A stretch of 64,000 nucleotides of DNA from Candidatus Bathyarchaeota archaeon (GTDB lineage Archaea > Thermoproteota > Bathyarchaeia > TCS64). The stretch spans positions 45,638 through 109,637 of the forward strand of contig CAWGAT010000044.1 of assembly GCA_963820555.1 (NCBI GenBank), given 5' to 3'. Within the stretch, counting starts at the first letter, position 1. Each line of letters starts with the position of its first letter. The notes under the pieces were generated by a model. The model was given only the letters and a program-made list of their open reading frames with translations. It was not told the DNA's origin and made no database searches. Below, one piece after another: positions 13,902 to 45,618 of the stretch. A program made the position numbers and the translations under genes.

Positions 13902-13916
13902 GGAGGAGAATGAGAT

Positions 13917-15096: not shown

Positions 15097-15109
15097 GGAG
15101 GAATATGAA

Positions 15110-16006: not shown

Positions 16007-16219
16007 GAACTCCTGGTCTCCACATATTTTTACATCTTTCAGTATCTATTTACCCCACTCAAAATAATATTTATTTTCACCCCTCTCTTTTCACTGGGAA
16101 TTTTTACCTGTAACTATTATTCTCTATACCAACATAAACAATATATGTAGTCATTAGAATACTTACTGATTCCCTTTGCCGTACTTTGGGTTCCAGGCAG
16201 ATGCCGGGTCGGTGATAAC

Positions 16220-24709: not shown

Positions 24710-26122
24710 TTAGGCTTCCTTCGCCGCCTTGGCAGTTATGTATTCGTGTATCGCCTTGGCGGCATTTTTTCCAGCCCCCATTGCGCTGATGACGGTCGCT
24801 GCGCCGCTGACCACGTCGCCCCCCGCGTAGACGCCTGGGATGGCGGTCTGCATGGTCTCCTCGTTGACAACTATCGTCCCGTGGCGCGTCGTTTGGAGGC
24901 CCTCAGTCGTCTGTTGGATTATTGGGTTTGGTGACTGCCCGATGGCTATGACCGCTGTGTCGATGTCGATTGTGAAGTTGCTCCCCTCGATGGGCTCTGG
25001 TCGGCGTCTCCCCGACTGGTCGGGTTCGCTGAGGCGCTGCTTCACGCACTCAACCTTCTCTAGGAAGCCGCGCTCGTTTCCTATGAAGCGGACCGGGTTC
25101 GTGAGGAGGTTGAACTCTATGCCTTCCTCCTCGGCGTTTTCTGCCTCCTCGGCTCTCGCCGGCATCTCATCCCTGCTCCGCCTGTAGATTATGTAGACCC
25201 TCTCGGCCCCCAGCCTCAGGGCGCAGCGGGCCGAGTCCATGGCAACGTTCCCAGCCCCCACGACCCCGACCCTCTTCCCCACCCTGATCGGTGTGTCGTA
25301 CTCCGGGAACTTGTATGCCTTCATCAGATTCGTCCGTATCAGAAACTCGTTCGCTGAGTAGATACCCTTGAGGTTCTCCCCTGGGACATGGAGAAAGTTG
25401 GGGAGTCCCGCCCCCGAGCCTATGAAGACCGCGTCATAGCCCCCATTCATGAGTTCCTGTATAGTGGACAGCAACCCAATAGTCGAATCGAGGCGGAGTT
25501 CAACCCCGAGACTCTTCACGTACTCCACCTCCGTTTGGACTATCTCTTTCGGTAGTCTGAACTGGGGGATCCCGTACATCAGAACTCCCCCTGCGGTGTG
25601 AAGGGACTCGAAGATCGTGACCCTGTGCCCCATCTTGGCGAGGTCCGCAGCTACGGTCAACCCGGCTGGGCCGGAGCCTACTACGGCGACCTTACCATTT
25701 GTCTGTGGGGTGGCCTGGGGCTCCAGTTTTGTGTTCAGTCTCTCCCAGTCCGAGGCGTATCTCTCGAGGCGCCCGATCCCCACGGGGTCCCCCCTGACGC
25801 CGAGGACGCAGAACTTCTGGCACTGCTCTTCCTGCGGGCAGACCCTGCCGCATACTGCTGGAAGGGCGTTTTTCTCCTTGAGTTTCTTGGCCGCTTCTCC
25901 GAACTTGTGCTCCTTGATGAGTTGTATGAACTCAGGGATAGGGACCTCCACAGGGCACCCCTTCTTGCACTGGGGCTTGGGACAGTTGAGGCACCTCCCC
26001 GCTTCCATGAGGGCAAGCTCCTCTATGTAGCCCAGCGCCACCTCGTCGAAGTTGTGTATCCTCTGCTCGACTGCCTGCTTAGGCATCTCGGCTTGGGGTT
26101 TCCTGTTCGCCAAATCAGTCAC
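24710..26122 (-). CDS. nfnB: GltD-family NAD(P)H flavoprotein, NfnB/SudA-like large subunit
   Basis: CLNCPKPQCKKGCPV and AVCGRVCPQEEQCQKFC cluster motifs; two GxGxxG sites (VAVVGSGPAGL, VGVVGAGNVAMD); GVYAGGDVV. Confidence 0.85.
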   Translation of the reverse strand: MTDLANRKPQAEMPKQAVEQRIHNFDEVALGYIEELALMEAGRCLNCPKPQCKKGCPVEVPIPEFIQLIKEHKFGEAAKKLKEKNALPAVCGRVCPQEEQCQKFCVLGVRGDPVGIGRLERYASDWERLNTKLEPQATPQTNGKVAVVGSGPAGLTVAADLAKMGHRVTIFESLHTAGGVLMYGIPQFRLPKEIVQTEVEYVKSLGVELRLDSTIGLLSTIQELMNGGYDAVFIGSGAGLPNFLHVPGENLKGIYSANEFLIRTNLMKAYKFPEYDTPIRVGKRVGVVGAGNVAMDSARCALRLGAERVYIIYRRSRDEMPARAEEAENAEEEGIEFNLLTNPVRFIGNERGFLEKVECVKQRLSEPDQSGRRRPEPIEGSNFTIDIDTAVIAIGQSPNPIIQQTTEGLQTTRHGTIVVNEETMQTAIPGVYAGGDVVSGAATVISAMGAGKNAAKAIHEYITAKAAKEA

Positions 26123-26933
26123 CTCCGTCGAAGACGACCATGGCGATCTTCTCGTTGGGGTTGTAGAACCTCATGCGGCTAATGAGTTCATCATAGTTGA
26201 CCTTGTGGCCGTCAAAGTCAGGGCCGTGGACACAGGCGAAGCGCGTCTCCCCGCCGACGGTTACGCGGCAGGCCCCGCACATCCCCGTCCCATCCACCAT
26301 TATGGGGAACAGGTTAACCGTCGTCGGCGTGCCATAGGGCCTAGTCATCTCGGAGACAATCATCTGCATGCTCGTAGGCCCAATGGTAATCGCCTGAGAG
26401 AATTTCTTCTCCTTCAGCAGTTCCGCCAAGAAGGCTATGCCCTCATGGCCCTCCGAACCATCGTCGGTGGCAACGTGGAACTCGTCGCTGACCTTCCTCA
26501 GTTCGTCTACGAGGATGAGGTGATCCTTGCTTCTCGCCCCCAGGATCGTGGTTATCCGGTTTCCTGCTTTCCTCAGCGCCTTCACCTGGTATAGTAGGGC
26601 ACCCGCCATCACGCCCCCGCCCACGCAGAGGACGTCACCGTATTTCTGTATCTTCGTCGCGTTCCCGAGGGGACCCGAGAAGTTCAGTATTGAGTCCCCT
26701 ACATCCAGCTTCCCGAGCTGGATCGATGACTTCCCCACCTCCGCGAAGATGATGGTGACCGTGCCCTTCTTAGGGTCAGCATCCGCTATTGTTATCGGGA
26801 ACCTCTCCCCGCGCTCGTGGACGCGCAGAATAACGAACTGCCCTGGTCTCGATTTAGCGGCAACCGCAGGTGCTGTGACATCAAAGAGCTTGATGTTTGG
26901 TGCAAGCTTCTCCTTCCGCACTATACCGTACAT
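26115..26933 (-). CDS. nfnA: FNR/PyrK-like FAD/2Fe-2S subunit, NfnA/SudB-like small subunit
   Basis: RFPITIAD, VLCVGGGVMAGAL, and C-terminal CGACRV..FACVHGP. 8-nt overlap with the nfnB-like gene. Start placed at MYGIVRKEK. Confidence 0.85.
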   Translation of the reverse strand: MYGIVRKEKLAPNIKLFDVTAPAVAAKSRPGQFVILRVHERGERFPITIADADPKKGTVTIIFAEVGKSSIQLGKLDVGDSILNFSGPLGNATKIQKYGDVLCVGGGVMAGALLYQVKALRKAGNRITTILGARSKDHLILVDELRKVSDEFHVATDDGSEGHEGIAFLAELLKEKKFSQAITIGPTSMQMIVSEMTRPYGTPTTVNLFPIMVDGTGMCGACRVTVGGETRFACVHGPDFDGHKVNYDELISRMRFYNPNEKIAMVVFDGGD

Positions 26934-27090
26934 GAAGGGATCACAGTATTGTGGGTTAATACTATAAAAACCTGTACATGTTGTAATTATAATGAAGACC
27001 CTAACTGACAATCTCAATTAAAGGGAAAAACCGATGCAGGGAAAATGAGTAACGTATTGAAGAAGAAGAAAAAAAGAAATAACGAAGAGT

Positions 27091-28440
27091 TTACGCGTAG
27101 TAGCCCTGGGCGACCATCGCGTCGGCGACCTTGAGGAAGCCTGCGATGTTGGCACCCATTACGTAGTTGCCGGGCTGGCCGAATAGCTTCGCGGTGTCGT
27201 AGGCGTTCTTGTGGATGCCTACCATGATCGCGTGAAGCTTCTCGTCAACTTCCTCGCGAGTCCAGAAGTAGCGCTGGCTGTTCTGAGACATCTCGAGTCC
27301 GCTCGTGGCTACGCCACCTGCGTTGCTCGCCTTGCCGGGTGCATACAGGACCTTCGCCTTCTGGAAGACCTCGATGGCCTTCAAGTCGCAGGGCATGTTA
27401 GCGCCCTCGGTGACGGCTAAGATTCCGTCAGCGACAAGCTTCTCAGCCTCCTTGCCAAGCAGCTCGTTCTGAGTTGCGCTGGGGACTGCCACCTGGCCCT
27501 TGTAGTCCCATGGCTTTGCGCCCTTCTTGTACTCGATGCCCTTGAACTTCTCAGCCATCTCGCTGATGCGTCCCCTCTTGACGTTCTTCAGCTCCATCAT
27601 AAAGTCCCACTGCTCCTTTGTGAGACCCTTTGGCATGTAAATCGTACCGTCAGAGTCGCTGAGGGTGACTACCTTGCCTCCGAGCTGCATGACCTTCTCG
27701 GCGGCATACTGGGCCACATTGCCCGAGCCGCTGATGAGGACATCCTTACCCTTGAAGGAGTCCTTCTTGGTCTTCAACATCTCCTCAGCGAAGTAGACCG
27801 CACCATAGCCAGTCGCCTCCGGCCTGATGAGGCTGCCACCGAAGGGTATACCCTTGCCGGTGAGCACGCCAACACCGTGCTGGTTAGTGATCTTGCGGTA
27901 AGCGCCGTACATATAGCCTATTTCTCGTCCGCCCACACCGATGTCGCCAGCGGGGACGTCCGTGAACTGGCCAATGTGCCTAAAGATCTCTAGCATGAAG
28001 CTGGTGCAGAAACTCTCGACCTCGGCGTCAGTCTTGCCCTTGGGGTCGAAGTCGGAACCGCCCTTCGCACCACCCATGGGTAGGGTGGTGAGGCTATTCT
28101 TTAAGACCTGCTCGAAGCCTAGGAACTTTAGGACGCCGAGGTTCACCGTGGGGTGGAACCTGAAGCCGCCCTTGTATGGGCCGATAGCTGAGTTGAACTG
28201 GATCCTGTAGCCACGGTTGATCTGGAGCTCTCCATTCTTGTCCTTCCAGGGCACACGGAACTGAACCAGCCTCTCGGGCTCGACGATGCGCTCAAGAATC
28301 TTGTTCTCCTTGTACTGGGGGAACTTCTTGATCGCGGGCTCGATCGTGGTCAGAACCTCATATGCGGCCTGGTGGAACTCCTTCTGGAGGGGGTCCTTTT
28401 CAACAATGCCGTTGTAGACACTCTCAATATACTTATCCAA
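27091..28440 (-). CDS. gdhA: NADP-specific glutamate dehydrogenase, ~450-aa bacterial type
   Basis: GPYKGGFRFHP, PMGGAKGGSDFDPKGK, GSGNVAQYAAEK. Collinear with my recollection of E. coli GdhA over the full length. Confidence 0.95.
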   Translation of the reverse strand: MDKYIESVYNGIVEKDPLQKEFHQAAYEVLTTIEPAIKKFPQYKENKILERIVEPERLVQFRVPWKDKNGELQINRGYRIQFNSAIGPYKGGFRFHPTVNLGVLKFLGFEQVLKNSLTTLPMGGAKGGSDFDPKGKTDAEVESFCTSFMLEIFRHIGQFTDVPAGDIGVGGREIGYMYGAYRKITNQHGVGVLTGKGIPFGGSLIRPEATGYGAVYFAEEMLKTKKDSFKGKDVLISGSGNVAQYAAEKVMQLGGKVVTLSDSDGTIYMPKGLTKEQWDFMMELKNVKRGRISEMAEKFKGIEYKKGAKPWDYKGQVAVPSATQNELLGKEAEKLVADGILAVTEGANMPCDLKAIEVFQKAKVLYAPGKASNAGGVATSGLEMSQNSQRYFWTREEVDEKLHAIMVGIHKNAYDTAKLFGQPGNYVMGANIAGFLKVADAMVAQGYYA

Positions 28441-28828: not shown

Positions 28829-30757
28829 ATGAACGGAGATGCTCTCATAGCCCTGACTGTTGGTTTCCCGTCTTTGGCGGGCCTCTTATGTTATGCCCTG
28901 AACAATAAGGCGGCTAGAAGAATCATTGTGGCGCTGACCGCCGCTGTTCTCATAGGTTCATCCCTCCTACTTTTCCAGGGCGGTGGTGGACATACGTACG
29001 ATTCACCGCCGATATTCGAAAGCGTTGTCCTTGTGCTCGACCTCGCGCTACTGGTTTACTTCCTCTACGCCGGGTTGAAGTATAACAACTTGCTTGTCAT
29101 CGGGCTCGCCGCGCTGCAGCTTGTTCCAGTGGCTTATTTTGAGTTCGGCCTCGGCGGAATGGCCGTCGAGCCGATGATCATCGTCAATCAGCTCTCGCTT
29201 ATAATGAGCCTGATCATCAGCATCGTGGGCTCCTTCATTGTCGTGTACGCTCTAAGCTATATGGATGAGCATGAGCATCACTTACACATCGAGAAGAGCA
29301 AGCAACCGCGCTTCTTCTTCTTCATGCTGCTCCTCCTCAGCGCGATGTATGGTCTCGTTTTCAGCAACAGCCTCTACTGGGTCTACTTCTTCTGGGAAGT
29401 CACGACCCTTTGCAGCTACGAGCTGATTAGGCACGACGGAACGGACATCGCGGTAAAGAACTCGCTGACCGCCCTCTGGATGAACCTCCTCGGCGGCGTC
29501 GGCTTCGTCGCCGCGATCTACCTCGCATACACCTTCGCGGGTACCCTCTCCATAGAGGCTCTGGTAAACTCGAACTTGACTCGCCCATCTTTACTACTCT
29601 TCGCCGCGCTCGCTTTCGCTGCTTTTACAAAGTCCGCCCAGTTTCCATTCAACAAGTGGTTACAGGGCGCGATGGTCGCGCCGACCCCCGTCTCCGCACT
29701 GCTTCATTCCAGCACGATGGTTAACGCAGGCATCTTCCTCATCCTAAGGTTCGCCCCCGCCTTCAGCGATACCGCACTTAGCTTCGGGGTCGCCCTTGTC
29801 GGGGCGTTCACCTTCATGATAACTGCTGTCCTCGCCCTGAACGAGAGGCTATCCAAGGGGATACTCGCCTACTCTACCATAGGGAACCTCGGCCTCATCA
29901 TACTCTGCGTGGGGATCAGCACCCCTCAGAACCCACTGGGCTACGTCGCAGCGCTAACGTTGCTCATCTTCCACTCCGTCTCTAAGGGCCTCCTCTTCCT
30001 CTGCGCGGGTGTCGTCGAGAACCGCGTACACACGCGCGTGATCGAGGACTGGGAGGGGCTCCTCGCAAGGCTCCCCACCACGACGATTATCATGATCGTC
30101 GGGATGTTGAGCATGTTCCTGCCCCCATTCGGGATGCTACTAGGCAAGTGGGTGGCCATCGACGCGATAATCACGTCGTCAACCCTCGGCTTCCTCATAA
30201 TAATCTCGTTCGTGCTCATAGGTAGTGCTGCGACGACCCTCTACTATGCGAAGTGGCTGGGGCACATGCTCGTGCTCCCACAGTCTGGGAAAAAGCTCGG
30301 CGTGGAGCAGCTCCCGCTACCATACTCGATATCGCTATTGTCCCTGCTAACTCTCGGCATAGTGATGGGGGCCGGTGCATCGATGGTCATCGGGGCGGTC
30401 GTGCTCCCCGCGTTGCCTGCCGGGAACTTCCCTTTCATAAGCGCCGGGACCCTGAGCTTCTCCACTGGCATCGGTACGTTCCTCACCTACCCATTCTGGG
30501 TCGGCGCCATAGCTATCTTCGTCTTAGGGTGGATAATAGCGACGAAGAAGGGCGGCGTCGTGAAGCCACCCTACGTCAGCGGCGAGAATGTCTCGGACAA
30601 CCCCGACGCCTTCAAGACGACGGCGGACACCCAGGTCCCGATGGAGGTCTCAGCCTTATTCATGGAAAACGAGTTCAGCCAATCCAAGGTGCTGAGCTAC
30701 GGCGCCGTGACGGGGGCGTTGATCGTCATGATAATGTTCATAACGGTGGTGCTTTGA
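28829..30757 (+). CDS. Ech-type hydrogenase membrane subunit, antiporter-like (EchA/NuoL/MrpD family)
   Basis: 642 aa, polytopic. Contains WVYFFWEVTTLCSY and ALLHSSTMVNAGIFLILRF regions typical of NuoL/M/N-type subunits. Confidence 0.85.
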   Translation: MNGDALIALTVGFPSLAGLLCYALNNKAARRIIVALTAAVLIGSSLLLFQGGGGHTYDSPPIFESVVLVLDLALLVYFLYAGLKYNNLLVIGLAALQLVPVAYFEFGLGGMAVEPMIIVNQLSLIMSLIISIVGSFIVVYALSYMDEHEHHLHIEKSKQPRFFFFMLLLLSAMYGLVFSNSLYWVYFFWEVTTLCSYELIRHDGTDIAVKNSLTALWMNLLGGVGFVAAIYLAYTFAGTLSIEALVNSNLTRPSLLLFAALAFAAFTKSAQFPFNKWLQGAMVAPTPVSALLHSSTMVNAGIFLILRFAPAFSDTALSFGVALVGAFTFMITAVLALNERLSKGILAYSTIGNLGLIILCVGISTPQNPLGYVAALTLLIFHSVSKGLLFLCAGVVENRVHTRVIEDWEGLLARLPTTTIIMIVGMLSMFLPPFGMLLGKWVAIDAIITSSTLGFLIIISFVLIGSAATTLYYAKWLGHMLVLPQSGKKLGVEQLPLPYSISLLSLLTLGIVMGAGASMVIGAVVLPALPAGNFPFISAGTLSFSTGIGTFLTYPFWVGAIAIFVLGWIIATKKGGVVKPPYVSGENVSDNPDAFKTTADTQVPMEVSALFMENEFSQSKVLSYGAVTGALIVMIMFITVVL

Positions 30758-30758
30758 C

Positions 30759-31667
30759 ATGGTAGACTTCCTTAACCTCAACACGTACGTCCCAGTGGTC
30801 CTAGTCATACTGGCCCCCATGATCGGCGGCCTGCTGATGGGAATAGACCGGAGGATAACCGCTAGGATGCAGAGCCGCATGGGGCCGCCGATAATGCAAC
30901 CCTTCTACGACGCGATAAAGCTCTGGGGCAAGGAGCCGTTCATCGCGAGCAGCATCCAGCCGATCCTGGCCTTCGGCTACTTCGGCTTCAGTGTCGCCGC
31001 CTTCGCGCTTCTCGCCTTCGGGCAGGACATGTTACTGCTCGTCTTCACCATGGCGATAGCGGATCTATGCCTGATAGTGGCGGCCTTCAACTCCAAGTCC
31101 CCATACAGCAACATAGGCGCCCGCCGCGAGCTACTCGGAATGCTAAGCTACGAGCCCGTTCTGCTCCTGGCAGCGATCAGTATCTTCTTCGTCTCCGGTA
31201 GCTTCATGGTCGGCTCGATCTTCGATGTCAAAGTGCCGCTGCTCACGATCCTTCCCTTAACCTTCCTAGCCCTCATCCCTGTTCTCATCATCGACATGAA
31301 GAAGTCCCCCTTCGACGTCTCGGGTTCAGGCCACGCCCACCAAGAACTCGTCAGGGGTGTCTACACAGAGTTCAGCGGTTACACCCTCGCACTCGTCGAG
31401 CTAGGCCACTGGACGAAGGTCGCCCTGCTCGTAGGCTTAGCGAGCCTATTCTGGGCAAAGGACGTAGTCCTTGGCGCCCTCACGGTCCCGTGGATAGTGG
31501 TGGGTGCAGTCATCGCCTTTGCCCTCTTCTTCGTCGTGCTCGTGATAGACAACAGCTACCCGAGGCTCGACTGGAAGACGATGGTAAAGACCACGTGGGT
31601 CGTGGGCTTCCTCCTGATAATCGCGAACATCGTCGGGCTCATCGCCCGTGTGGTGATACTATCATGA
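30759..31667 (+). CDS. Ech-type hydrogenase membrane subunit (EchB/NuoH/HycD family)
   Basis: GIDRRITARMQSRMGPPIMQPFYDAIKLWGKE signature; starts 1 nt after the upstream stop. Confidence 0.85.
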   Translation: MVDFLNLNTYVPVVLVILAPMIGGLLMGIDRRITARMQSRMGPPIMQPFYDAIKLWGKEPFIASSIQPILAFGYFGFSVAAFALLAFGQDMLLLVFTMAIADLCLIVAAFNSKSPYSNIGARRELLGMLSYEPVLLLAAISIFFVSGSFMVGSIFDVKVPLLTILPLTFLALIPVLIIDMKKSPFDVSGSGHAHQELVRGVYTEFSGYTLALVELGHWTKVALLVGLASLFWAKDVVLGALTVPWIVVGAVIAFALFFVVLVIDNSYPRLDWKTMVKTTWVVGFLLIIANIVGLIARVVILS

Positions 31668-32107
31668 AGACAATGACTAAGGCACGGCTCAAGTCGCCGT
31701 GGGTCATGCACTTCGACTGCGGCAGCTGCAACGGCTGCGACATCGAGATACTCGCCGCTCTGACGCCGAAGTTCGACGTGGAGCGCTTCGGAATCGTCAA
31801 TATAGGTGACCCGAAGCAGGCGGACGTCCTATTAGTGACGGGTCCCGCCAACAAGCGCAACCAGCGCGTATTAAAGAACCTCTACGACCAGATGCCCCAA
31901 CCTAAGGTCGTCATCGCCATCGGCGAGTGCGCCTGCAGTGGCGCGATCTTCCATAACTGCCCCAACACTCTCGGTGGCGTCGACAAGGTCATCCCCGTGG
32001 ACGTCTATGTCCCCGGATGCGCGGCACGTCCCGAGTCGATCATAGACGGAGTCGTACTAGCACTGCAGAAGCTCCAGAAAGTGAGCGAGGGCGAGAAGGT
32101 GGAATAA
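31664..32107 (+). CDS. group-4 [NiFe] hydrogenase small subunit (EchC/NuoB-like)
   Basis: Four cluster cysteines in CGSCNGCDIE, GECACSG and VPGCAARPE; ATGA overlap with the upstream gene. Confidence 0.9.
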   Translation: MKTMTKARLKSPWVMHFDCGSCNGCDIEILAALTPKFDVERFGIVNIGDPKQADVLLVTGPANKRNQRVLKNLYDQMPQPKVVIAIGECACSGAIFHNCPNTLGGVDKVIPVDVYVPGCAARPESIIDGVVLALQKLQKVSEGEKVE

Positions 32108-32108
32108 G

Positions 32109-33908
32109 ATGACTGCACAGCAGTTCGAATTAAAGTCAAAGACCGAGAACATCGCGGCTGAGAAGTCGGAGATGTTCAACAGGCTAAGCGAGCTGAAGGC
32201 TCAGGGTGCTCGCCTAATTACTATCACGGCCCTCGACCACGGCAAGGAGATTGAGTACGTCTACAACTTCTCAAGGGACATGGACGTGGTCAACCTCCAC
32301 GTCAAGACGCCAAGGAAGGAGCCGATGCCGAGCATCACGAGCGTTTACCCCTCCGCCTTCCTCTTCGAGAACGAGATACAGGACCTGTTCAAGATTCAGA
32401 TCTCTGGGATAAGCGTCGACTTCGGCGGCAAACTCCTCACCATCGAAGGGGCTGACGACACAACGCTCGTCAAGCCGGCGATCGGTCCCGCGCCGTTCAT
32501 CAAGAGGTTCTACGGGCGCTGCCGCGAGGCGTGCCCCGGCTCGGTTAACGCTCCCAAGTACATCAGGCAAGTCGCCCAGGGCGACCCGCAGGGCGGTTAC
32601 AGCACGGTATGCGAGCGGGCTCCCCTCCCCGCCATACTCGGGAGAGTCTGCTTCGCCCCCTGCCAAGAGGGCTGCCGTCAGGAACGCAACGACGAGCCCA
32701 TCCAGATTAGACTCATCAAGAGATACACGGCGGACTCGATGCCCAGCCTCAAGAGGAAGATGAAGGTAACCAAGCCCACCGGTAAGAAAGTCGCGATCGT
32801 AGGTGGGGGACCCGCTGGCGTTAGCTGCGCCTACTTCCTCGGGCTGCTCGGTCACGAGGTCACCCTCTACGAGAGGGGTGACCGCTGCGGCGGGGCAATG
32901 CTTTGGGGTATACCCAAGTACAGGCTCCCCAAGGACCTCCTGGAGGAGGAGATACAGGCACGCCTATCTGAGGCGGGTGTCGCCCTCAAGACGAAGAAGG
33001 AGGTCAAGAACCTCAAGACCCTGAAGAAGGACAACGACGCCGTCTTCGTCGCCATAGGGGCGCTCGACAGCTACAAGCTGGGCGTCGAGGGCGAGGACAA
33101 CGAGGGAGTCATGGACTTCCGCGAGCTCCTCAGCCAGGTCAACGTCCACGACAAGACCCCGTCCATAGGCGACCGCGTCGCTATCATCGGCGGAGGAAAC
33201 AGCTCGATAGACGCCGCGCGCGTCTCCAAGCGCCTCGGAGCCAGCAAGTTGGTCATGTACTACAGGCGCACCGAGAAGGAGATGCCTGCCTCGCCCCACG
33301 AGATCCACGGGGCGCTCCAAGAGGGCGTCAGCTTCGAGTACCTCACCGCCCCCGTGAAGATCGAGCCCGGTAAGCCCCTGAAACTCACCCTCCAGCACAT
33401 GGAGCTCGGCGCACCCGACGACTCGGGCAGGCGCAGGCCCGTGCCAGTGAAGGGGAGCGATTTCACGGTCGAGGTCGACACGATAGTCAAGGCGATCGGC
33501 CAGTCAGTTGTCGTGCCAGCAGACTTCGGCGTCGAGGTCAACAGGCAGGGCAGGATAGTCATCAACGAGGAGACGATGCAGACGAGTCTCCCCGGCGTCT
33601 ACGCCGGCGGAGACGGCGTCTACGGCCCCAGCAGCGTCATCGAGGCACTGAGGGACGGCAGGAAGGCCGCCCACAGCATAGACATGAGCCTCGGCGGCAA
33701 GGGCCTCCCACCGCCAGACCTTGATGCGGACGAGTTCGTGGGCCGCCCCCCAAACATCGAGGAGATCAGGTTCCAGGAGATGGTGAGCTGCCGCGAGCTA
33801 AACGCCGAGGAGCGCATAAAGGGCTTCGGCGAGGTCGAGCTCGGCTACAACGAGGACGAGGCGCTTCGTGAGGCGAAGCGCTGCTGGAAGTGTGACTGGA
33901 ATGAATGA
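32109..33908 (+). CDS. fusion protein: NuoC/EchD-like domain plus a GltD/NfnB-type NAD(P)H flavoprotein domain
   Basis: aa 1-115: PSITSVYPSAFLFENEIQDLFKIQISG (NuoC signature). aa ~135-560: RCREACPG, GRVCFAPCQEGC, KKVAIVGGGPAGVSCAY, DRVAIIGGGNSSIDAAR, GVYAGGDGV. C-terminal CWKC. Confidence 0.85.
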   Translation: MTAQQFELKSKTENIAAEKSEMFNRLSELKAQGARLITITALDHGKEIEYVYNFSRDMDVVNLHVKTPRKEPMPSITSVYPSAFLFENEIQDLFKIQISGISVDFGGKLLTIEGADDTTLVKPAIGPAPFIKRFYGRCREACPGSVNAPKYIRQVAQGDPQGGYSTVCERAPLPAILGRVCFAPCQEGCRQERNDEPIQIRLIKRYTADSMPSLKRKMKVTKPTGKKVAIVGGGPAGVSCAYFLGLLGHEVTLYERGDRCGGAMLWGIPKYRLPKDLLEEEIQARLSEAGVALKTKKEVKNLKTLKKDNDAVFVAIGALDSYKLGVEGEDNEGVMDFRELLSQVNVHDKTPSIGDRVAIIGGGNSSIDAARVSKRLGASKLVMYYRRTEKEMPASPHEIHGALQEGVSFEYLTAPVKIEPGKPLKLTLQHMELGAPDDSGRRRPVPVKGSDFTVEVDTIVKAIGQSVVVPADFGVEVNRQGRIVINEETMQTSLPGVYAGGDGVYGPSSVIEALRDGRKAAHSIDMSLGGKGLPPPDLDADEFVGRPPNIEEIRFQEMVSCRELNAEERIKGFGEVELGYNEDEALREAKRCWKCDWNE

Positions 33909-35028
33909 TGCAAAGATGTCCCAGAACAAGTACACCGTAATACCCTTTGGGCCCCAGCACCCCGTGCTACCCGAACCCGTACACCTCCGCTTCATCGTCG
34001 ACGAGGACAAGATAGTCGACGTCGTGCCAAACCTAGGCTACGTCCACCGCGGTATCGAGCGCGGCTGCGAGATCAACGACTACAAGAGGAACATCTACCT
34101 CTGCGAGCGCGTCTGTGGCATCTGCAACTACATCCACGGAATGACCTACAGCGAGGCGATCGAGAAGGCGACCGACACCGAGGTCCCCGCCCGCGCCAAG
34201 TACATACGCGTCGCATGGAGTGAGCTACAGCGCCTCCAGAGCCACCTGCTCTGGCTCGGCCTCTTCGCCGACGCGATCGGCTTCGAGAGCCTGTTCATGC
34301 AGATCTGGCGCGACCGTGAGGTTATACTCACCCTGAACGAGAAGACGAATGGTCACCGCATCCACCTAGAGACCAACGTGATCGGCGGCTGTAGGAAGGA
34401 CATCGACGAGAGCCTCGCGAAGGCCTACGTCGACGACCTCAGCATCGTGAGGCAGAAGATGGAGAACCTTCGCCCAGTCTTCTACAAGGACTCAGCCCTG
34501 AAGGCGAAGTGTGAGGGGAGGGGAATCCTGCCGAAGAGCAAGGCATCCTTCCTCGGCGCGGTCGGCCCAACTATCAGGGGAAGCGGTATCAAGACGGACG
34601 CCAGAATGACCGGATACGAGGCATACGGGGCCCTCGGATTCGAGCCTATAACCCACGAGGGGGAGGACGCCTACTCGAGGATGCTCGTCAGATACGACGA
34701 GGTCTTCCAGAGCCTCGACCTCATCGAGAAGGCGCTGAAGGAGATGCCGGAGGGGCCGGTGCTCAACAAGAGCACAAAGTTCCCGGAGGGCACAGCCCTC
34801 GTGAGGACGGAGCAGCCGCGCGGTGAGCTATTCTACTACATCGAGGGGAACGGCACGAACAAGCTTAGCCGCTGCAAGATCAGGACCCCCACCGCAGCCA
34901 ACATCCCGCCGCTCGTCTCGATGCTCATCGGGAACGATGTCCCGGACATCCCAACTATCATCCACAGCATCGACCCGTGCATAAGCTGCACGGAGCGCTT
35001 CATCCAGGTGAAGAAGGAGGCGAACTGA
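33901..35028 (+). CDS. group-4 [NiFe] hydrogenase large subunit (EchE/NuoD-like)
   Basis: PFGPQHP, N-terminal NiFe motif RVCGICNYIHG, C-terminal DPCISCTER; 8-nt overlap with the fusion gene. Confidence 0.9.
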   Translation: MNDAKMSQNKYTVIPFGPQHPVLPEPVHLRFIVDEDKIVDVVPNLGYVHRGIERGCEINDYKRNIYLCERVCGICNYIHGMTYSEAIEKATDTEVPARAKYIRVAWSELQRLQSHLLWLGLFADAIGFESLFMQIWRDREVILTLNEKTNGHRIHLETNVIGGCRKDIDESLAKAYVDDLSIVRQKMENLRPVFYKDSALKAKCEGRGILPKSKASFLGAVGPTIRGSGIKTDARMTGYEAYGALGFEPITHEGEDAYSRMLVRYDEVFQSLDLIEKALKEMPEGPVLNKSTKFPEGTALVRTEQPRGELFYYIEGNGTNKLSRCKIRTPTAANIPPLVSMLIGNDVPDIPTIIHSIDPCISCTERFIQVKKEAN

Positions 35029-35029
35029 T

Positions 35030-35368
35030 ATGCCGGAAATGGTAAAGGAAGTGCTCAAGAACCTCTTCAGCAAGCCAGCGACCGTCAAGTACCCGTTCGA
35101 GAAGCCGACGCCGGTCCCCGGGACACGCGGGGCCCTGACGTGGGACATGAACAGGTGCGACCAGTGCCAGGACTGCGAGCGCGTCTGCCCGAGCATGGCA
35201 ATCAAGGTCGTACCCGAGGAGAAGAGGGTCGAGTATCAGGCATTCAAGTGCCTCTTCTGCTACCTCTGCATAGACAACTGCATGCAGCAGGCGATCATCG
35301 GCTCGGACGTCATGAGGGCGCCCGAGTACACGAAGAAGACCGAGGTCTTCGAGGCCCAGAAAGCGTAG
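35030..35368 (+). CDS. 2x[4Fe-4S] ferredoxin subunit (EchF/NuoI-like)
   Basis: CDQCQDCERVCP and CLFCYLCIDNC motifs; starts 1 nt after the large-subunit stop. Confidence 0.85.
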   Translation: MPEMVKEVLKNLFSKPATVKYPFEKPTPVPGTRGALTWDMNRCDQCQDCERVCPSMAIKVVPEEKRVEYQAFKCLFCYLCIDNCMQQAIIGSDVMRAPEYTKKTEVFEAQKA

Positions 35369-35415
35369 GTTTTCTTTCTCAATCTTTTTAATCCACTGTC
35401 ATTCATCAGAAGCAG

Positions 35416-35901
35416 ATGGTCCCAGACAGCGTAGTGGATCTCTCCGAGGCGGACACACGCTTCATGAGGAGTCTCGAGGCCGAGCTTGGCGCGAGCGACC
35501 TCAGCAAGTGCTTCCAGTGCGGGGTATGCACAGCCTCCTGCCCGATCCGGGAGGTCGAGGCGTCGTTCAGCCCCCGGAGGATAATGAAGCTGGCCAAGAT
35601 GGGGCTGAAGAAGCGGGTATACGCGAGCGACACCATCTGGCTCTGCAGCATGTGCTTCATGTGCCTCGAGAGGTGCCCACAGGACGTGCGCCCACCCGAG
35701 GTGATGATTGTCCTCAGGAACATGGCGGCGAAGGAGGGCGTGGCCCCCGCCAACCTCTCCAAGCTCCTCGACATACTGAAGCAAAACGGGCGAGTCTACT
35801 CCGTCGACGACTTCACGAACGAGGAGAGGGGCGACCGCGGCCTGCCCACCGTCGAGGCGGAGCCAGAGTTCATTAAGCGCATCTCGGAGGCGAAGTCATG
35901 A
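35416..35901 (+). CDS. hdrC: heterodisulfide reductase subunit C
   Basis: CFQCGVCTASCP and CSMCFMCLERCP motifs; 161 aa. Confidence 0.85.
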   Translation: MVPDSVVDLSEADTRFMRSLEAELGASDLSKCFQCGVCTASCPIREVEASFSPRRIMKLAKMGLKKRVYASDTIWLCSMCFMCLERCPQDVRPPEVMIVLRNMAAKEGVAPANLSKLLDILKQNGRVYSVDDFTNEERGDRGLPTVEAEPEFIKRISEAKS

Positions 35902-36770
35902 GGTACGGCCTCTTCCTTGGGTGCACCATCCCGACCCGGCAGATGAACTACGAGCAATCCGCGAGGGAGGTTGCGAGGGTGTTCGGCATCGAGTTCGTCT
36001 ACAGCGGCTACGGCTGCTGCGGGTTCCCCGTGGAGTCGGTCGACGAGGTCAAGGCACTGTCAATGGCTGCCGCAAATCTGAAGATCGCTTCATCAAGTGG
36101 GGATGCCCTCGTCACCCTGTGCTCGGCCTGCGGAGAGATGTTAAACAAGACAGAGAAGAGGCTCGGTGAGGACGCCGAGGCCGCGAAGGGCGTCGGGAAG
36201 GTCCTCGCCCAGGTGGGTCTAACATACTCGGGGGAGAAACCGAGGGTGATCCACTTCGCCAGGATGCTCCACGACGACTACGGCCTAGATAAAATCCGAG
36301 CACAGGTCGTGAGGCCACTCAAGGGCCTGAAGATCGCCACACACCCAGGCTGCCACTACGTCCGCCCATCAACCCTCTACCCGGGATTCGACGACCCTGA
36401 GTTCCCAGGCACCCTCGACAGGCTCGTCGAGGCCACGGGGGCCGAGGCTCTCGACTACCAGGGGAAGACAGACTGCTGCGGAGGCGGGATACTAGCAGTC
36501 CGAGAGGAGATAGCGAAGGCGATGACCGGTAAGAAGCTCTCGAGGCTATCCGGAAAGGCCGATGCCATGGTTGTCGTCTGCCCTTTCTGCGGGATAATGT
36601 ACGACAAGTACCAGAAGACACTAGAGGAGGAGCTTGGGAAGCAGTTCGGTCTCCCCGTCCTCTACTACCCCCAGCTACTCGGCCTCGCACTGGGCATCGA
36701 TCCATCCAAGCTGGGCTTCGACGTCAACTCGGTGGGCGTCCAAGCCCTCCTAGGGAAGGTGGGTGTCTGA
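35898..36770 (+). CDS. hdrB: heterodisulfide reductase subunit B
   Basis: Two CCG-domain motifs, GYGCCGFP and KTDCCGGG; ATGA overlap with hdrC. Confidence 0.9.
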   Translation: MRYGLFLGCTIPTRQMNYEQSAREVARVFGIEFVYSGYGCCGFPVESVDEVKALSMAAANLKIASSSGDALVTLCSACGEMLNKTEKRLGEDAEAAKGVGKVLAQVGLTYSGEKPRVIHFARMLHDDYGLDKIRAQVVRPLKGLKIATHPGCHYVRPSTLYPGFDDPEFPGTLDRLVEATGAEALDYQGKTDCCGGGILAVREEIAKAMTGKKLSRLSGKADAMVVVCPFCGIMYDKYQKTLEEELGKQFGLPVLYYPQLLGLALGIDPSKLGFDVNSVGVQALLGKVGV

Positions 36771-36771
36771 C

Positions 36772-39093
36772 ATGGCGACGGGGGTATTCATCTGCAAGTG
36801 TGGCGGGAACATCTCGGGCACGGTGGATTGCGAGAAGGTTCGAGACTCAGTTAAAGATGAGGGAGATGTCAAGACTGCGCAGGTCACCGAGTTCCTCTGT
36901 TCCAAGCCCGGACTCCAGCTGATTCAGAAAAGCATAAAGAACCATGGGCTGGACAGGGTCGTCGTCGCCTGCTGCAGCCCTCACATGCACGAAGAGATGT
37001 TCCGCGGTGTCGTCGAGGAGGCCGGCGTCAACAGGCACAAGCTCGTCCATGTCAACCTGAGGGAGCAGTGCAGCTGGGTCCACGACAGAGGTGCAACGGA
37101 GAAGGCCATGAGCCTCGTAAAGGGCGGGGTCGCGCGCGCTCGTACCCTTGAGCCCTTAGAGGAGAAAGTCGTAAAGATAAACAGGGACGTGCTCGTCATC
37201 GGCGGTGGAGTCGCGGGGATAACCGCTGGCTTACAGCTTAGCAAGGGCGGTTTCAAGGTCAGCCTCATCGAGCGTCGACCTAGCATAGGCGGGCGCATGG
37301 CACAGCTAAGTAAGACATTCCCCACCCTCGACTGCAGCCCGTGTATACTCAGCCCACGGATGGCGGAGGTCGGGAACGACGAGAACATCACCCTCCTGAC
37401 TGGGGCGGAGGTCGCCTCCGTGTCGGGCGGCCCGGGGGATTACCACGTCAAGGTCAGGGTCTCCCCAAGGGGAGTAGACGCTGAGAAGTGCCTCAAGTGT
37501 GGACGCTGTAGCCAAGTCTGCCCCACGGAGGTGCCGAATGAGTTCGAGGAAGGGTTGTACAAGCGTAAGGCCGCCTACCTACCATTCCCGCAGGCTGTAC
37601 CCTCGTCGTACGCCATTGACTTCGAGCACTGCCAGCGATGCGGCGCCTGCGTTGAGGCGTGCCCCGTCGGCGCCATCAACCTAGATGATGAGGAGAAGAT
37701 AGTCACCGTCGACGCCGGGTCGATGATAGTTGCCACTGGCTTCGACCTCATCGGGAACGAGGTGCTCCGCACCTATCACCCCGAGATGAGCGGGGTCGTT
37801 AACGGCCTACAGGTGGAGAGGCTCATCGAGAACGAGCTCACGGAGGGGAAGGTCCTGACGCGGGGGAACGGGGAGAGGGTTAAGTCCATCGCCTACGTCC
37901 TCTGCGCGGGGAGTCGGGACCCCCACCACGGTGTCGGCTACTGCAGCAGCGTCTGCTGCGCCTACTCCGTCAAGCAGGCCATCCTGCTCAGGAAGTTCCT
38001 ACCCTTCCTCAAGGTCTACATCTACTACACGGATATGCGGATGACTGGGCGTGGGTTCGAGGACTTCTACAGGGAGGCGCGCGAGAAGGGGGTCCAGTTT
38101 ATTCACGCGAAGCCCGGCGGGGTTACGCCCCTCGAGGATGGGCGGTTCGAGATAATCGTCGAGGACCTCGACACGGGGCTTATGCTGAGGAACCCGGTGG
38201 ACCTCGTTGTGCTCAGCTCCGCTATGGTCCCTTCCGCGGGGACGGGTGAGTTGGCGTCCCGCCTCGGCATAGCTCTCGGGGAGGACCTCTTCGTGGCGCC
38301 GAAGCATGTAAAGCTCGACCCGATCTCGACGCTGAGGGAGGGCGTCTTCGCCGTCGGTGTCGCTACGGGGACAAAGGATATACACGACTCGGTCATCGAC
38401 GCGAGGGCCGCGGCAAGCCACGTCTTCAACTTCGTCGGGGACGGCACTGCTAAGCTGAGCCCCGCCAAGCCCACCCATGAAGGGGAGTGCGACCTCTGCG
38501 GGGCCTGCGTGGACGCCTGCTCTAGAGGGGCCCTGACTATGGGTGGCGAGGGTCCGGTCCTCGACCCCGTGAGCTGCAACGGCTGCGGGGCGTGTATCTC
38601 TGTCTGCCCCAGAGGTTCGCTCAGGATACCGAACAACTCCGGGGACGCCTTGCTCGAGGAGGCAAGGGGGCTCCTCTCGGGAACCGAGGGAGACGTGGCT
38701 GTCCTGGGCTTTTTCGACGACAACATCAGTTATACGGCGGCCGACAACGCGGGTACTGCACGGCTTCACTACCCAACGAACATCAGGATTCTGAGGATGC
38801 CCTCCACCGCCCTTCTGAGCAAGGAGACCATCCTGAAGGCGATGGGGCTGGGCGCCGACGGCGTGCTCATCTGCGAGGTGGAGGAGAGCCATGAGGCCGA
38901 GCTGGCAGCGAGGCTCGTCGAGGATGTCTCGGAGACCCTGAAGAGCCTCGGCGTAGAGCCGGGGAGGGTACGCCTCCAGCCTATGGTGCTGCCCATCTTT
39001 AAGATGCTCCCCAAGTTCATCTCGGACTTCACGGAGCAGGTGAAGAAGATGGGCAAGATACCACCAGCGAAGCAGCGACTCTTATTAGGTTGA
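36772..39093 (+). CDS. hdrA: HdrA-MvhD fusion protein, copy 3 (intact)
   Basis: GVFICKCGGNISG, VVVACCSPH, VLVIGGGVAGITAGL, CLKCGRCSQVCP, CQRCGACVEACP. C-terminal MvhD-like domain. An alternative GTG start at 36763 overlaps hdrB. Confidence 0.9.
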   Translation: MATGVFICKCGGNISGTVDCEKVRDSVKDEGDVKTAQVTEFLCSKPGLQLIQKSIKNHGLDRVVVACCSPHMHEEMFRGVVEEAGVNRHKLVHVNLREQCSWVHDRGATEKAMSLVKGGVARARTLEPLEEKVVKINRDVLVIGGGVAGITAGLQLSKGGFKVSLIERRPSIGGRMAQLSKTFPTLDCSPCILSPRMAEVGNDENITLLTGAEVASVSGGPGDYHVKVRVSPRGVDAEKCLKCGRCSQVCPTEVPNEFEEGLYKRKAAYLPFPQAVPSSYAIDFEHCQRCGACVEACPVGAINLDDEEKIVTVDAGSMIVATGFDLIGNEVLRTYHPEMSGVVNGLQVERLIENELTEGKVLTRGNGERVKSIAYVLCAGSRDPHHGVGYCSSVCCAYSVKQAILLRKFLPFLKVYIYYTDMRMTGRGFEDFYREAREKGVQFIHAKPGGVTPLEDGRFEIIVEDLDTGLMLRNPVDLVVLSSAMVPSAGTGELASRLGIALGEDLFVAPKHVKLDPISTLREGVFAVGVATGTKDIHDSVIDARAAASHVFNFVGDGTAKLSPAKPTHEGECDLCGACVDACSRGALTMGGEGPVLDPVSCNGCGACISVCPRGSLRIPNNSGDALLEEARGLLSGTEGDVAVLGFFDDNISYTAADNAGTARLHYPTNIRILRMPSTALLSKETILKAMGLGADGVLICEVEESHEAELAARLVEDVSETLKSLGVEPGRVRLQPMVLPIFKMLPKFISDFTEQVKKMGKIPPAKQRLLLG

Positions 39094-43750: not shown

Positions 43751-44431
43751 TAGGCGCAAAGCAAATGTATGATCAACCATTCAATCACAGTTGAGTATCA
43801 GATGGAGCTAAGGATAATTTATGGAGAAATTTAGTTAATGTTTAAATCCGTTGGCATCCCATAGCTAATATGCAGTTGGTCGAGCGCTTCTTCATTTAAC
43901 ATTGTTATGATAAATTATTACTGGTAACTTAAAATTAATTTGATCACTGTGTGCAGCGCGCGCGACTTTCAATTTTCTAATTTATACCTAAATAATTGAT
44001 ATTCTCGGTATCCAGGTTTTTCTCTCGTCCCTGAGATACTTCGCGAATAGAAGGGCTTCCTCGTTGATCAGCGTCTCAAGTGTATGATGCTCCCATGTCT
44101 AATCCGCTTGACCTCCCATCGCACGCGATTCTGGCTTGGAGTCAAACGGGGGTGTGGACGTACATGATCTCTACTGGATTGCTAATCGAGTGATGGAGAC
44201 ATTCATCTGGATAGGGTTTGTGCGTATAAATATTTGAGACAAAACTTTCTTTTCTAAACAAACTCACTAGTTATATAATAGTCTCTAAAATTATACTTTA
44301 TATATAAGTAAAACCGTTTGTCCGCTAATTGAGTAACTTAGCTGTTACATAATATCTCCGTAATACTTCAAATATTTCTAAACTTCAGCAACACATATAA
44401 GTACAGACTAAAAGATCAAAATGGATTAACC

Positions 44432-44620
44432 TTGAATGTAAGTTTAAGCAACGGATCGCGTTGGTTAAAGTACGTCTACCTGACCGTCGGTCTCTACGCA
44501 TTGTGGAGCATGACGGATGCTATGATCAAAACCTCACCAGGATTCGCATACTATGGATACGCTGTCCTAGGTGCTGTGCTGGTGTTTCTAACCAGACAAA
44601 TACAAAAGGGGAGGGTCTAG
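44432..44620 (+). CDS. small membrane protein (2 predicted TM), hypothetical
   Basis: 62-aa ORF with a TTG start and hydrophobic stretches, in the low-GC island. Confidence 0.35.
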   Translation: MNVSLSNGSRWLKYVYLTVGLYALWSMTDAMIKTSPGFAYYGYAVLGAVLVFLTRQIQKGRV

Positions 44621-44621
44621 T

Positions 44622-44807
44622 ATGAATGGGTGGTTAATTATTGCTGGCTTACTAGCAATCATGCTCGGCATAGCACTTTACATGGATAATCCAAATGCCC
44701 GCAGTCGATCTTATTCCAATTCTCAGTTCGGAGAGTTTAGAGGCACTCCTGCTAACGTGTTAATGTTCATGGGTTTTGCCATGATGGGTCTGGGGGCAGT
44801 AATATAG
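44622..44807 (+). CDS. small membrane protein (2 predicted TM), hypothetical
   Basis: 61-aa ORF starting 1 nt after the previous stop; WLIIAGLLAIMLGIALY and VLMFMGFAMMGLGAVI. Confidence 0.35.
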   Translation: MNGWLIIAGLLAIMLGIALYMDNPNARSRSYSNSQFGEFRGTPANVLMFMGFAMMGLGAVI

Positions 44808-44817
44808 CTAAACCGTC

Positions 44818-44880
44818 TTAACCACACGTTTTTGTAAGGTAATATCCTCTCGTACATTGGATCGTAAGTAGAGTGGGCTA
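44818..44880 (-). pseudogene. remnant of an integrase 3' end, a degenerate copy of 45619-45680
   Basis: Hand alignment gives about 80 percent identity over a ~41-nt core, and the stop codon sits at the same offset. Encodes ..LLTIQCTRGYYLTK.. versus ..LLTIEWTREYCPTK.. in the integrase. Confidence 0.45.
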
Positions 44881-44908
44881 TTTCGTCTTGAAATTGTCAA
44901 GCTATTGG

Positions 44909-45514: not shown

Positions 45515-45618
45515 TTTCGGTCTTCAATGATTAGTTAAATGTAATATAAAAAATCAATGGATCATTAGTTCATTTAAAAAGTAACTTTCTTGGTTTACTA
45601 AATTCTATACAGTCGCAC

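Follow-up and report, generated by a model that had tools for sequence, protein, structure and literature searches.

The window analysed here is a 64,000-nt stretch of contig CAWGAT010000044.1 from Candidatus Bathyarchaeota archaeon, and all coordinates are positions in this window unless a locus of another genome is named. Between 28829 and 39093 it carries nine plus-strand open reading frames (ORFs) with zero internal stops in an ORF check, namely six genes of an Ech-type [NiFe]-hydrogenase in the order echABCDEF, with echD fused to a gltD-like gene, followed by hdrC, hdrB and an hdrA whose product ends in an MvhD domain (Table 1). Successive junctions from echA to echF measure +1, -4 (ATGA), +1, -8 and +1 nt; a 47-nt T-rich gap then precedes hdrC, and the two junctions within the hdr cassette are overlaps of -4 and -8 nt. 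An earlier note, made from the sequence of this stretch, had described the same layout, and the ORF check and Pfam bore out its nine genes with their coordinates, strand and order, its hdrC, two-CCG hdrB and intact HdrA-MvhD fusion without internal stops; the junctions that it gave match exactly, including the 1-nt gaps, the ATGA and 8-nt overlaps and the T-rich gap.

Table 1. Features of the ech-hdr locus and of its surroundings in the window (aa, amino acids; BRE, B recognition element)
Feature	Position	Strand	Evidence and remarks
echA, NuoL/Mrp-antiporter-like membrane subunit	28829-30757	+	642 aa; Pfam Proton_antipo_M (2.6e-51), Proton_antipo_N
echB, NuoH-like membrane subunit	30759-31667	+	302 aa; Pfam NADHdh (1e-44); GGTGG upstream
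echC, NuoB-like hydrogenase small subunit	31664-32107	+	147 aa; Pfam Oxidored_q6 (1.8e-31); ATGA overlap with echB
echD-gltD fusion	32109-33908	+	599 aa; Pfam Complex1_30kDa, Fer4_20, Pyr_redox_2
echE, [NiFe] large subunit	33901-35028	+	375 aa; Pfam Complex1_49kDa, NiFeSe_Hases
echF, NuoI-like 2x[4Fe-4S] subunit	35030-35368	+	112 aa; Pfam Fer4 dicluster families; two CxxCxxCxxxC; GGAGG upstream
echF-hdrC gap	35369-35415	+	47 nt; T-rich tract and TATA/BRE-like box
hdrC, 2x[4Fe-4S]	35416-35901	+	161 aa; Pfam Fer4_8, Fer4_17
hdrB, two CCG domains	35898-36770	+	290 aa; Pfam CCG (6e-25), two stretches
hdrA with C-terminal MvhD/FlpD	36763-39093	+	776 aa; GTG start; Pfam FlpD (647-764), FAD and Fer4 families
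Glutamate dehydrogenase (gdh)	27091-28440	-	Pfam
nfnA/sudB-like	26115-27017	-	Pfam
nfnB/sudA-like	24710-26122	-	Pfam
mvhG-mvhA and two hdrA(mvhD)-like genes	16347-23200	+	Pfam; frame-disrupted
Terminase large-subunit-like gene	2148-3533		
Phage-integrase-family gene	45619-46449		

The protein encoded by the fourth gene is a fusion, in which an N-terminal NuoC/EchD domain (residues ~10-110) is continued by ~460 residues of an iron-sulfur (Fe-S) flavoprotein of the GltD/NfnB/StnC type; Pfam places Complex1_30kDa at 25-100, Fer4_20 at 137-211 and Pyr_redox_2 at 226-517. The "NuoC-like fusion" of the earlier note was right as to the fusion and its NuoC part but imprecise as to the partner, which is a GltD/NfnB-type NADPH flavoprotein, and the connection to NAD(P)H that the same note drew was right. 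Top matches among PDB sequences were 9bov_A (5e-106), 9n5u_A ("NfnA") and StnC (8oh5_C, 9e-91), followed by NfnB (2e-79) and then by glutamate synthase small subunits. Across 15 fusion homologues (51-89% identity), C138, C142, C181, C185, C189, C592 and C595 are invariant, as are the GGGPxG and GGGN motifs, Y385-R386-R387 and the arginine associated with flavin adenine dinucleotide (FAD); R272 of the fusion aligns to R201 of NfnB and R239 of StnC. Alignments with 9bov, 8oh5, 4ylf and 5jca recover what a GltD domain should contain, that is, two sets of [4Fe-4S] ligands, the FAD fold, a second Rossmann fold and the YRR(T/S) NADPH motif, and by these motifs the GltD part of the fusion is predicted to hold an FAD site, an NADPH site and two [4Fe-4S] clusters. 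The GltD-like domain of StnC binds the same set, FAD, NADPH and two [4Fe-4S] clusters, and lets electrons from NADPH enter along a linear wire without bifurcation (PMC10482914). Alignments to 9bov_A and StnC (8oh5_C) extend through the C-terminal EAxRCxxC motif of the fusion. We considered and rejected a circular permutation unique to the fusion as the origin of its C-terminal EAxRCWxCDWNE, since the same segment occupies the same place in 9bov_A and 8oh5_C. The AlphaFold2 model of the fusion has a predicted local distance difference test (pLDDT) score of 69.6 and a predicted template modelling (pTM) score of 0.55, and its domain arrangement is not interpretable because the Fe-S domain and the C-terminal tail score below 50.

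The large subunit EchE carries both ligand motifs of the [NiFe] site (L1, RxCGxCxxxH, here RVCGICNYIH; L2, DPCxxCxxR/H, here DPCISCTER), which, together with the NuoB-, NuoI-, NuoC-, NuoH- and NuoL-like subunits recognized by Pfam across the six genes, places the enzyme among the group 4 [NiFe]-hydrogenases. EchC scores 146 bits against the NCBIfam NuoB subfamily, above the cutoff of 116, and the cluster cysteines CGSC...GEC...PGC are seen in its translation. The best PDB match of EchE is the P. furiosus MbhL (6cfw_L, 1.2e-75), and it is Mbh (4d) that comes out as the best solved match because Ech chains are absent among the solved-structure matches. The closest unfused homologues of EchE are 359 aa long and 53-56% identical, and the sole genomic context read among them, that of L087 (Bacillota), is a canonical echABCDEF operon with an EchE 54% identical to that of the window and a stand-alone EchD of 114 aa. 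The window shares with the Ech subtype the six-gene echABCDEF order and the single antiporter-like subunit, but not the small stand-alone EchD, in place of which stands the 599-aa fusion. The presence of this fused NADPH domain suggests an electron partner other than, or besides, ferredoxin.

When the fusion alignment was run against GTDB, with a single genome for each species, 47 loci with fusion-type ech clusters were recovered; L083 and L088 bring the total to ~49. Loci in the survey are mostly from Bathyarchaeia, the others being labelled Methanomethylicota, Korarchaeum or Planctomycetota, and the same fused architecture was found on an Odinarchaeia contig. The full echA-B-C-(EchD-GltD)-E-F order is present in all loci with enough upstream contig, except for one membrane-less branch, and both [NiFe] motifs occur in all complete large subunits of the family with the exception of L047, where the pattern found L2 only. 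The family is compact, because only ~5-7 representatives span both halves of the fusion when 1.84 billion proteins are clustered at 50%.

The membrane-less branch (L028, L030, L031, L034 and L036) has the arrangement echC-fusion-echE-echF with zero matches to NuoL or NuoH. Sequence upstream of the L028 and L030 clusters held no nearby membrane-protein genes, only small proteins without hydrophobic segments; in both cases (L028, 6742-11131; L030, 7192-11550) two small ORFs, soluble and without Pfam matches, come before the cluster. By its gene content, this branch may represent a cytoplasmic hydrogenase that depends on NADPH and consists of the peripheral arm of a group 4 enzyme. Besides [NiFe], NADPH/FAD is the only evident substrate site in it, and of the comparative arguments this one speaks most strongly for NADP(H) as a true redox partner of the fused enzymes.

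Some members of the family carry labels from outside the archaea. L043, L047 and L048, whose bins carry the label Planctomycetota or uncultured bacterium, encode a fused Ech with 44-45% identity in the fusion and a large subunit that ends right after L2, and they may be real bacterial members or transfers. Three others, labelled Patescibacteria, Krumholzibacteriaceae and Desulfaltia (L015, L019 and L040), have fused Ech at 52-62% identity and look like mis-binned bathyarchaeal contigs. Apart from the fused family, five loci of Actinomycetota and relatives (L051, L053, L056, L060 and L062) have a GltD-type protein inside a Mrp-type complex-I-like cluster whose large subunit is without both [NiFe] motifs. 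They have the look of an Mbx/Nuo-like complex linked to NAD(P)H and resemble mbx-like operons with gltD (PMC4758237); the GltD-type protein of L056 and L062 has partial NuoC similarity.

The three genes behind echF encode relatives, rather than equivalogs, of the methanogen heterodisulfide reductase subunits, because all of their scores lie below the NCBIfam cutoffs: HdrC reached 103.7 bits against TIGR03290 (cutoff 160), HdrB 216 bits against TIGR03288 (cutoff 345) and HdrA 736 bits against its best model, HdrA2 NF040770 (cutoff 1100), of which positions 2-773 of 777 were matched. The HdrB translation shows the two cysteine patterns, Cx(n)CCx(n)CxxC, that are expected for noncubane [4Fe-4S] sites, and HdrA combines FAD and Fe-S domains with the C-terminal MvhD. 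The HdrA2 architecture corresponds to "type Ia" as defined in PMC12054007, and hdrCBA(mvhD) is classed here, by its domains and cysteine motifs, as a putative soluble heterodisulfide reductase of the HdrA2B2C2 type. No genes for coenzyme M/coenzyme B, mcr or disulfide carriers were found among the window proteins scanned. The earlier note's claim that the locus holds the sole hdrBC copy of the window was confirmed by tblastn, which found the pair in single copy. Elsewhere, in Bathyarchaeia (L054, L057 and L067), in L072 and in WOR-3 (L075-L079), a GltD, stand-alone or inserted, lies between the halves of hdrA and beside hdrC and hdrB; this hdrA-associated GltD has the same C-terminal CW[RK]CDWN-type motif as the fusion and fits the published "type III HdrA". 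One NADPH module has thus been recruited by both Hdr and Ech.

How far the adjacency of ech and hdr extends was assessed in 41 judgeable loci, that is, loci of GTDB species representatives with at least 600 bp of contig after echF. We found hdrC directly after echF in six of them (L001-L004, L007 and L008), and one additional metagenome contig (L083) is likewise linked. All linked loci fall in a single subclade of a neighbour-joining tree of the fusion and EchE, and this subclade also holds unlinked members. Its backbone is collinear, with an hdrA-like gene, nfnBA, gdh, ech, a slot, and then RNA-binding, AAA, radical-SAM and cupin genes. The slot after echF contains hdrCBA in the linked genomes and is empty in L009-L012; in L006, an 84%-identical relative, it holds genes for NuoE-like, NuoF-like and NuoG/FdhA-type formate dehydrogenase proteins on the same strand as ech (13474-18515), and in L044 a disulfide-oxidoreductase-type flavoprotein gene on the opposite strand (13255-14625). 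HdrA(MvhD) has many bathyarchaeal orthologues at 66-73% identity, and five of their contexts outside the linked subclade were read. No Ech was found within 10 kb of the hdrCBA orthologues in the four contexts that are complete (4/4), whereas the contig of the fifth stops 810 bp upstream and is not judgeable. One context places the hdr cassette beside hyp genes and a divergent Mvh/Hdr cluster, and three are free-standing hdr units, two of them hdrC-hdrB-hdrA and one with the hdrC region masked by a run of N. The MvhD domain of the Ech-linked HdrA bore no signature of a partner switch, its identity decreasing gradually and without a jump from linked to unlinked orthologues.

Thus, synteny between Ech and hdrCBA is a feature of one subclade but is not conserved beyond it. 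The adjacency is lineage-restricted and should not be taken as a sign of a conserved complex, while a metabolic or physical link between Ech and Hdr may exist within the linked subclade. Thiol/disulfide-type flavoproteins (thioredoxin-reductase-like or with Pyr_redox_dim), further hdrBC and FdhA-like genes were observed at L016 (13248-14183), L046 (13228-18658), L044 (13255-14625) and L085 (6918-8363). The recurrence of thiol/disulfide genes near fused Ech or hdrCBA in unrelated lineages is a loose association, short of conserved linkage.

Signals in the gap between echF and hdrC were compared among the linked loci. A T-rich tract follows right after the echF stop, and AATCTTTTTAAT lies at 35381-35392. 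The box CAAyhTTTTTAATCC is (nearly) invariant in the window, L001-L004, L007 and L008, the most distant linked loci included, while its flanks diverge, and it also occurs in L083. Its centre is ~27 nt before the hdrC ATG, which is the spacing of a TATA box ahead of a leaderless archaeal transcript. Shine-Dalgarno (SD) motifs of the GGTG/GGAGG type are found upstream of echB, echC, the fusion, echF, hdrB and hdrA, weakly before echE, and are missing before echA and hdrC, as expected if echA and hdrC each open a unit. Unlinked hdr cassettes also bear TATA-like boxes of their own. Because the TATA-like box is conserved and the hdrC start is without an SD motif, hdrCBA probably has its own promoter, and the gap is best explained as a probable terminator region joined to the promoter of a leaderless hdrC; promoter use is here what we infer from these signals. 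A scan for sigma-70 promoters and intrinsic terminators had no hits in the gap between echF and hdrC, and its counts were close to those expected from shuffled sequence; as it applies a bacterial consensus and the host is archaeal, which the TATA-binding protein gene in the window confirms, its result was not used. Named homologues of the fusion likewise put the window in Bathyarchaeia.

Upstream of the ech genes, the divergent nfnAB and gdh genes form what appears from their annotation to be an NADPH-centred context for ech, and the set is retained, whole or in part, in collinear order with ech in L001, L003, L005-L007, L010-L015 and L044. Farther upstream, on the plus strand, are the mvhG-mvhA block with its two hdrA(mvhD)-like genes and subunits of pyruvate:ferredoxin oxidoreductase; RNA-binding, AAA, radical-SAM and cupin genes follow downstream of hdrA on the minus strand. 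By tblastn, mvhA and the first hdrA-like gene have one frame change each. Compared with the two closest relatives, L001 and L003, the second hdrA-like gene has three 1-nt insertions (~22420, 22907 and 23194), each outside a homopolymer run, and mvhG is short of ~58 N-terminal residues relative to the reference. The contrast drawn earlier between a disrupted Mvh block and an intact ech-hdr locus therefore stands, with zero disruptions in 28829-39093, but the count for the Mvh block is 5-6 and not 6-7. Either the Mvh route has recently been pseudogenised, or the assembly is faulty at this place. At a greater distance from the locus, the window contains a terminase large-subunit-like gene and a phage-integrase-family gene, the latter beside a collagen-repeat protein gene in a stretch of low GC content (0.41 versus ~0.57; 44000-46500); both are probably left over from mobile or viral elements that had integrated.

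On balance, we favour as probable, though well short of certain, an account in which the locus consists of two adjacent but separable units, namely an NADP(H)-linked, ion-coupled, reversible Ech (28829-35368) and an autonomous HdrA2B2C2-type enzyme (35416-39093). For the hydrogenase, we infer an electron path, an NADPH specificity and an ion coupling as follows. NADPH would deliver a hydride to the FAD in the GltD domain of EchD, from which electrons would pass singly through the two GltD clusters to the EchF clusters, the EchC cluster and finally [NiFe], with flow in the reverse direction also possible, and EchA and EchB would link turnover to ion translocation. The enzyme would thereby be a reversible NADP(H):H+ oxidoreductase in which the GltD domain takes the role of the complex I N-module. 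The standard potentials are -320 mV for NADP+/NADPH and -414 mV for H+/H2, so the reaction would lie near equilibrium at environmental H2 pressures and could run in either direction. H2 would be evolved at low H2 pressure and NADPH made at high H2, and an NADPH-centred role in amino-acid fermentation would fit the conserved gdh and NfnAB neighbours. The hdrCBA genes, in turn, would occupy in the linked subclade a permissive slot behind the last ech gene, where insertions would disrupt nothing because the slot is the end of the operon and faces a convergent gene.

Several points weigh against this account. The organism is uncultured and the account is built on sequence, and the AlphaFold model of the fusion is too uncertain in the Fe-S domain for cluster distances to be measured. 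The key arginine is kept in both NfnB and StnC, so that a bifurcating and a non-bifurcating flavin are indistinguishable by sequence. Ferredoxin could dock on EchF, with ferredoxin and NADPH confurcating or with ferredoxin alone as the donor and the GltD domain a side branch. As for the separation of the two units, the linkage survives among loci whose fusion identity falls as low as 68%, each time on one strand and with a short gap, which exceeds a one-off accident and may reflect selection for co-expression, and thiol/disulfide or Hdr genes lie near other fused-Ech loci as well (L016, L017, L044 and L046).

The leading rival reading of the hydrogenase is a classical ferredoxin-dependent Ech in which the GltD domain is accessory, either confurcating ferredoxin and NADPH to H2 in an Nfn-like manner or regulatory, and in which hdrCBA are unrelated neighbours. 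We regard this as rather unlikely. In its favour, EchF has retained its two [4Fe-4S] motifs, EchE shows 53-56% identity to that of canonical ferredoxin-dependent Ech-type operons, the GltD fold is bifurcating in NfnB and its critical arginine is present here, and nfnAB lies close to the operon. However, the closest solved relatives of the fusion are of the non-bifurcating StnC type (5e-106 to 9e-91, versus 2e-79 for NfnB), and Pfam identified in the operon no NfnA-like partner for a second electron path. The GltD insertion in type III HdrA has been proposed to block the ferredoxin site (PMC12054007), and the fusion is kept in the membrane-less branch. A different doubt concerns the hydrogenase itself. 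GltD-like flavoproteins occur in mbx-like operons (PMC4758237) and in the Actinomycetota loci L051, L053, L056, L060 and L062, and by analogy with these and with the gltD mbx-like operons of Thermotoga the complex could be an Mbx/Nuo-like NAD(P)H oxidoreductase rather than a hydrogenase. The Actinomycetota clusters are without both [NiFe] motifs, whereas the window and all complete fused large subunits but that of L047 have both, and the intact L1 and L2 motifs contradict this non-hydrogenase reading, which we consider highly improbable.

The earlier note had instead joined Ech and Hdr in one membrane-bound assembly. In its fullest form, Ech and HdrCBA(MvhD) would make up a single membrane supercomplex in which MvhD docks on the hydrogenase as it does on MvhAG, coupling H2/NADPH, a disulfide, ferredoxin and ion translocation. 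MvhD is indeed the known adaptor between a hydrogenase and HdrA in Mvh-Hdr, the local Mvh is frame-disrupted so that HdrA has no classical partner in the window, and the two gene sets share a strand across a 47-nt gap, with linkage in 8 loci (for the six from the scan, the fusion is 68-93% identical). The NuoE-NuoF-FdhA genes on the same strand in the L006 slot hint at exchangeable electron-input modules, thiol/disulfide genes lie near other fused-Ech loci, and Hdr-interacting membrane hydrogenases (Ehd, Ehe, Drh and Ehg) have been proposed in published work (PMC9723716). However, the two gene sets occur widely apart from each other, hdrCBA being missing in 35 of the 41 judgeable loci and the orthologous cassettes standing alone, with no Ech within 10 kb in the 4 complete contexts; the MvhD domain of the linked HdrA has no special divergence, and Ehd and Ehe embed HdrB(C) in the operon without HdrA, which is not the case here. 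Transcription as a single unit is likewise disfavoured, as the conserved promoter-like box before hdrC and the missing SD motif point to independent transcription. On both counts the assembly fails the test by which the earlier note would have had it refuted, and we judge the supercomplex to be unlikely. We also see little chance that the slot after echF is a docking-module site, at which exchangeable redox modules (HdrCBA-MvhD here, NuoE-NuoF-FdhA in L006 and a thioredoxin-reductase-like protein in L016) serve an NADPH-linked Ech. If it were, the enzyme would be a modular membrane hub coupling H2, NADPH, formate or disulfide to ion translocation, and in this genome, where Mvh has decayed, Ech would have replaced Mvh as the partner of the MvhD domain of HdrA.

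Bathyarchaeia are among the most abundant archaea of anoxic sediments, peat and soils, and their redox balance and energy conservation are argued from genomes alone. If Ech is hard-wired to NADPH in the manner favoured here, the fused complex would represent an evolutionary alternative to the NuoEFG of complex I for nicotinamide entry to a proton-reducing membrane module. Amino-acid fermenters would be able to pass electrons from NADPH straight to H2, perhaps with conservation of energy, and hydrogenotrophs from H2 to NADPH, and "Ech" annotations in these lineages, read as ferredoxin-dependent, would be misinterpreted in metabolic models. The fused Ech is of moderate interest for the evolution of hydrogenases and complex I and for bathyarchaeal physiology, and the membrane-less four-gene branch is a tractable target for heterologous expression.

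We found no description of an EchD/NuoC-GltD fusion in a hydrogenase in the full-text literature searched, in which subscription journals are thinly covered, so that absence is not proof. Co-location of membrane [NiFe]-hydrogenases with Hdr subunits, on the other hand, has already been published for Ehd, Ehe, Drh and Ehg from Methanomethylicia, Culexarchaeia, Methanocellales and Nezhaarchaeia, for which H2-linked disulfide reduction at the membrane was proposed (PMC9723716). GltD insertions in HdrA (PMC12054007) and gltD-like subunits in mbx-like operons (PMC4758237) are also known. Hence, it is the Ech with an EchD-GltD fusion that appears to be new, and not the co-location of a hydrogenase with Hdr. 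Two other published bathyarchaeal complexes were set aside as different: the "novel energy-converting hydrogenase" Hfo of termite-gut Bathyarchaeia, which has 11 subunits (PMC7886697), and the nine-gene "ECH" of a complete Bathy-6 genome, an Mbh/Mrp-like complex that includes a NuoCD fusion (PMC11697101). The bathyarchaeal membrane hydrogenase of BA1 has been labelled 4g (PMC5037454).

Among known systems, the hydrogenase of the window is closest in layout to Ech (HydDB 4e) of the Methanosarcina barkeri and Thermoanaerobacter kivui type, with which it shares the six genes, their order, the [NiFe] motifs and a membrane arm of one NuoL-like and one NuoH-like subunit, and from which it differs in an EchD fused to a ~460-aa GltD-type flavoprotein in place of a stand-alone protein of ~114 aa. 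The GltD domain itself has by sequence the same fold as the StnC/NfnABC-type proteins (8OH5, 9BOV and 9N5U) and NfnB (5JCA and 4YLF; E-values of 5e-106 to 2e-79), with the same Fe-S cysteines, FAD arginine and YRRT NADPH motif, and its EAxRCxxC C-terminal segment is common to 9bov_A and StnC; the partner differs, being NuoC of a membrane hydrogenase here and a NuoG-like domain of a soluble transhydrogenase in StnC. Mbx-like operons of Thermotoga and proteobacteria (PMC4758237) and the Actinomycetota clusters (L051-L062) likewise place a GltD-type flavoprotein on a complex-I-like membrane module, but their large subunits are without the [NiFe] cysteines, their genes are ordered differently and their membrane arm is of the Mrp type, unlike that of the fused Ech. 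The N-module of complex I (NuoEFG) would be analogous, as a nicotinamide/flavin entry wired by Fe-S clusters to a NuoB/C/D/I core, although it belongs to an unrelated family (NuoF, not GltD), uses FMN and NADH rather than FAD and NADPH, and is docked via NuoG rather than fused to NuoC. The cassette behind echF matches M. acetivorans HdrA2B2C2 in its HdrA with C-terminal MvhD, its HdrC and its two-CCG HdrB, and differs in its Bathyarchaeia host, in a window with no methanogenesis genes and in scores below the equivalog cutoffs. Finally, like Ehd, Ehe, Drh and Ehg, the locus sets a group 4 hydrogenase beside Hdr genes; by cluster layout, those systems embed HdrB(C), usually without HdrA, whereas here a complete hdrCBA(mvhD) stands after a complete Ech, behind a promoter-like box and in 6 of 41 loci rather than as a conserved, embedded part of the operon.

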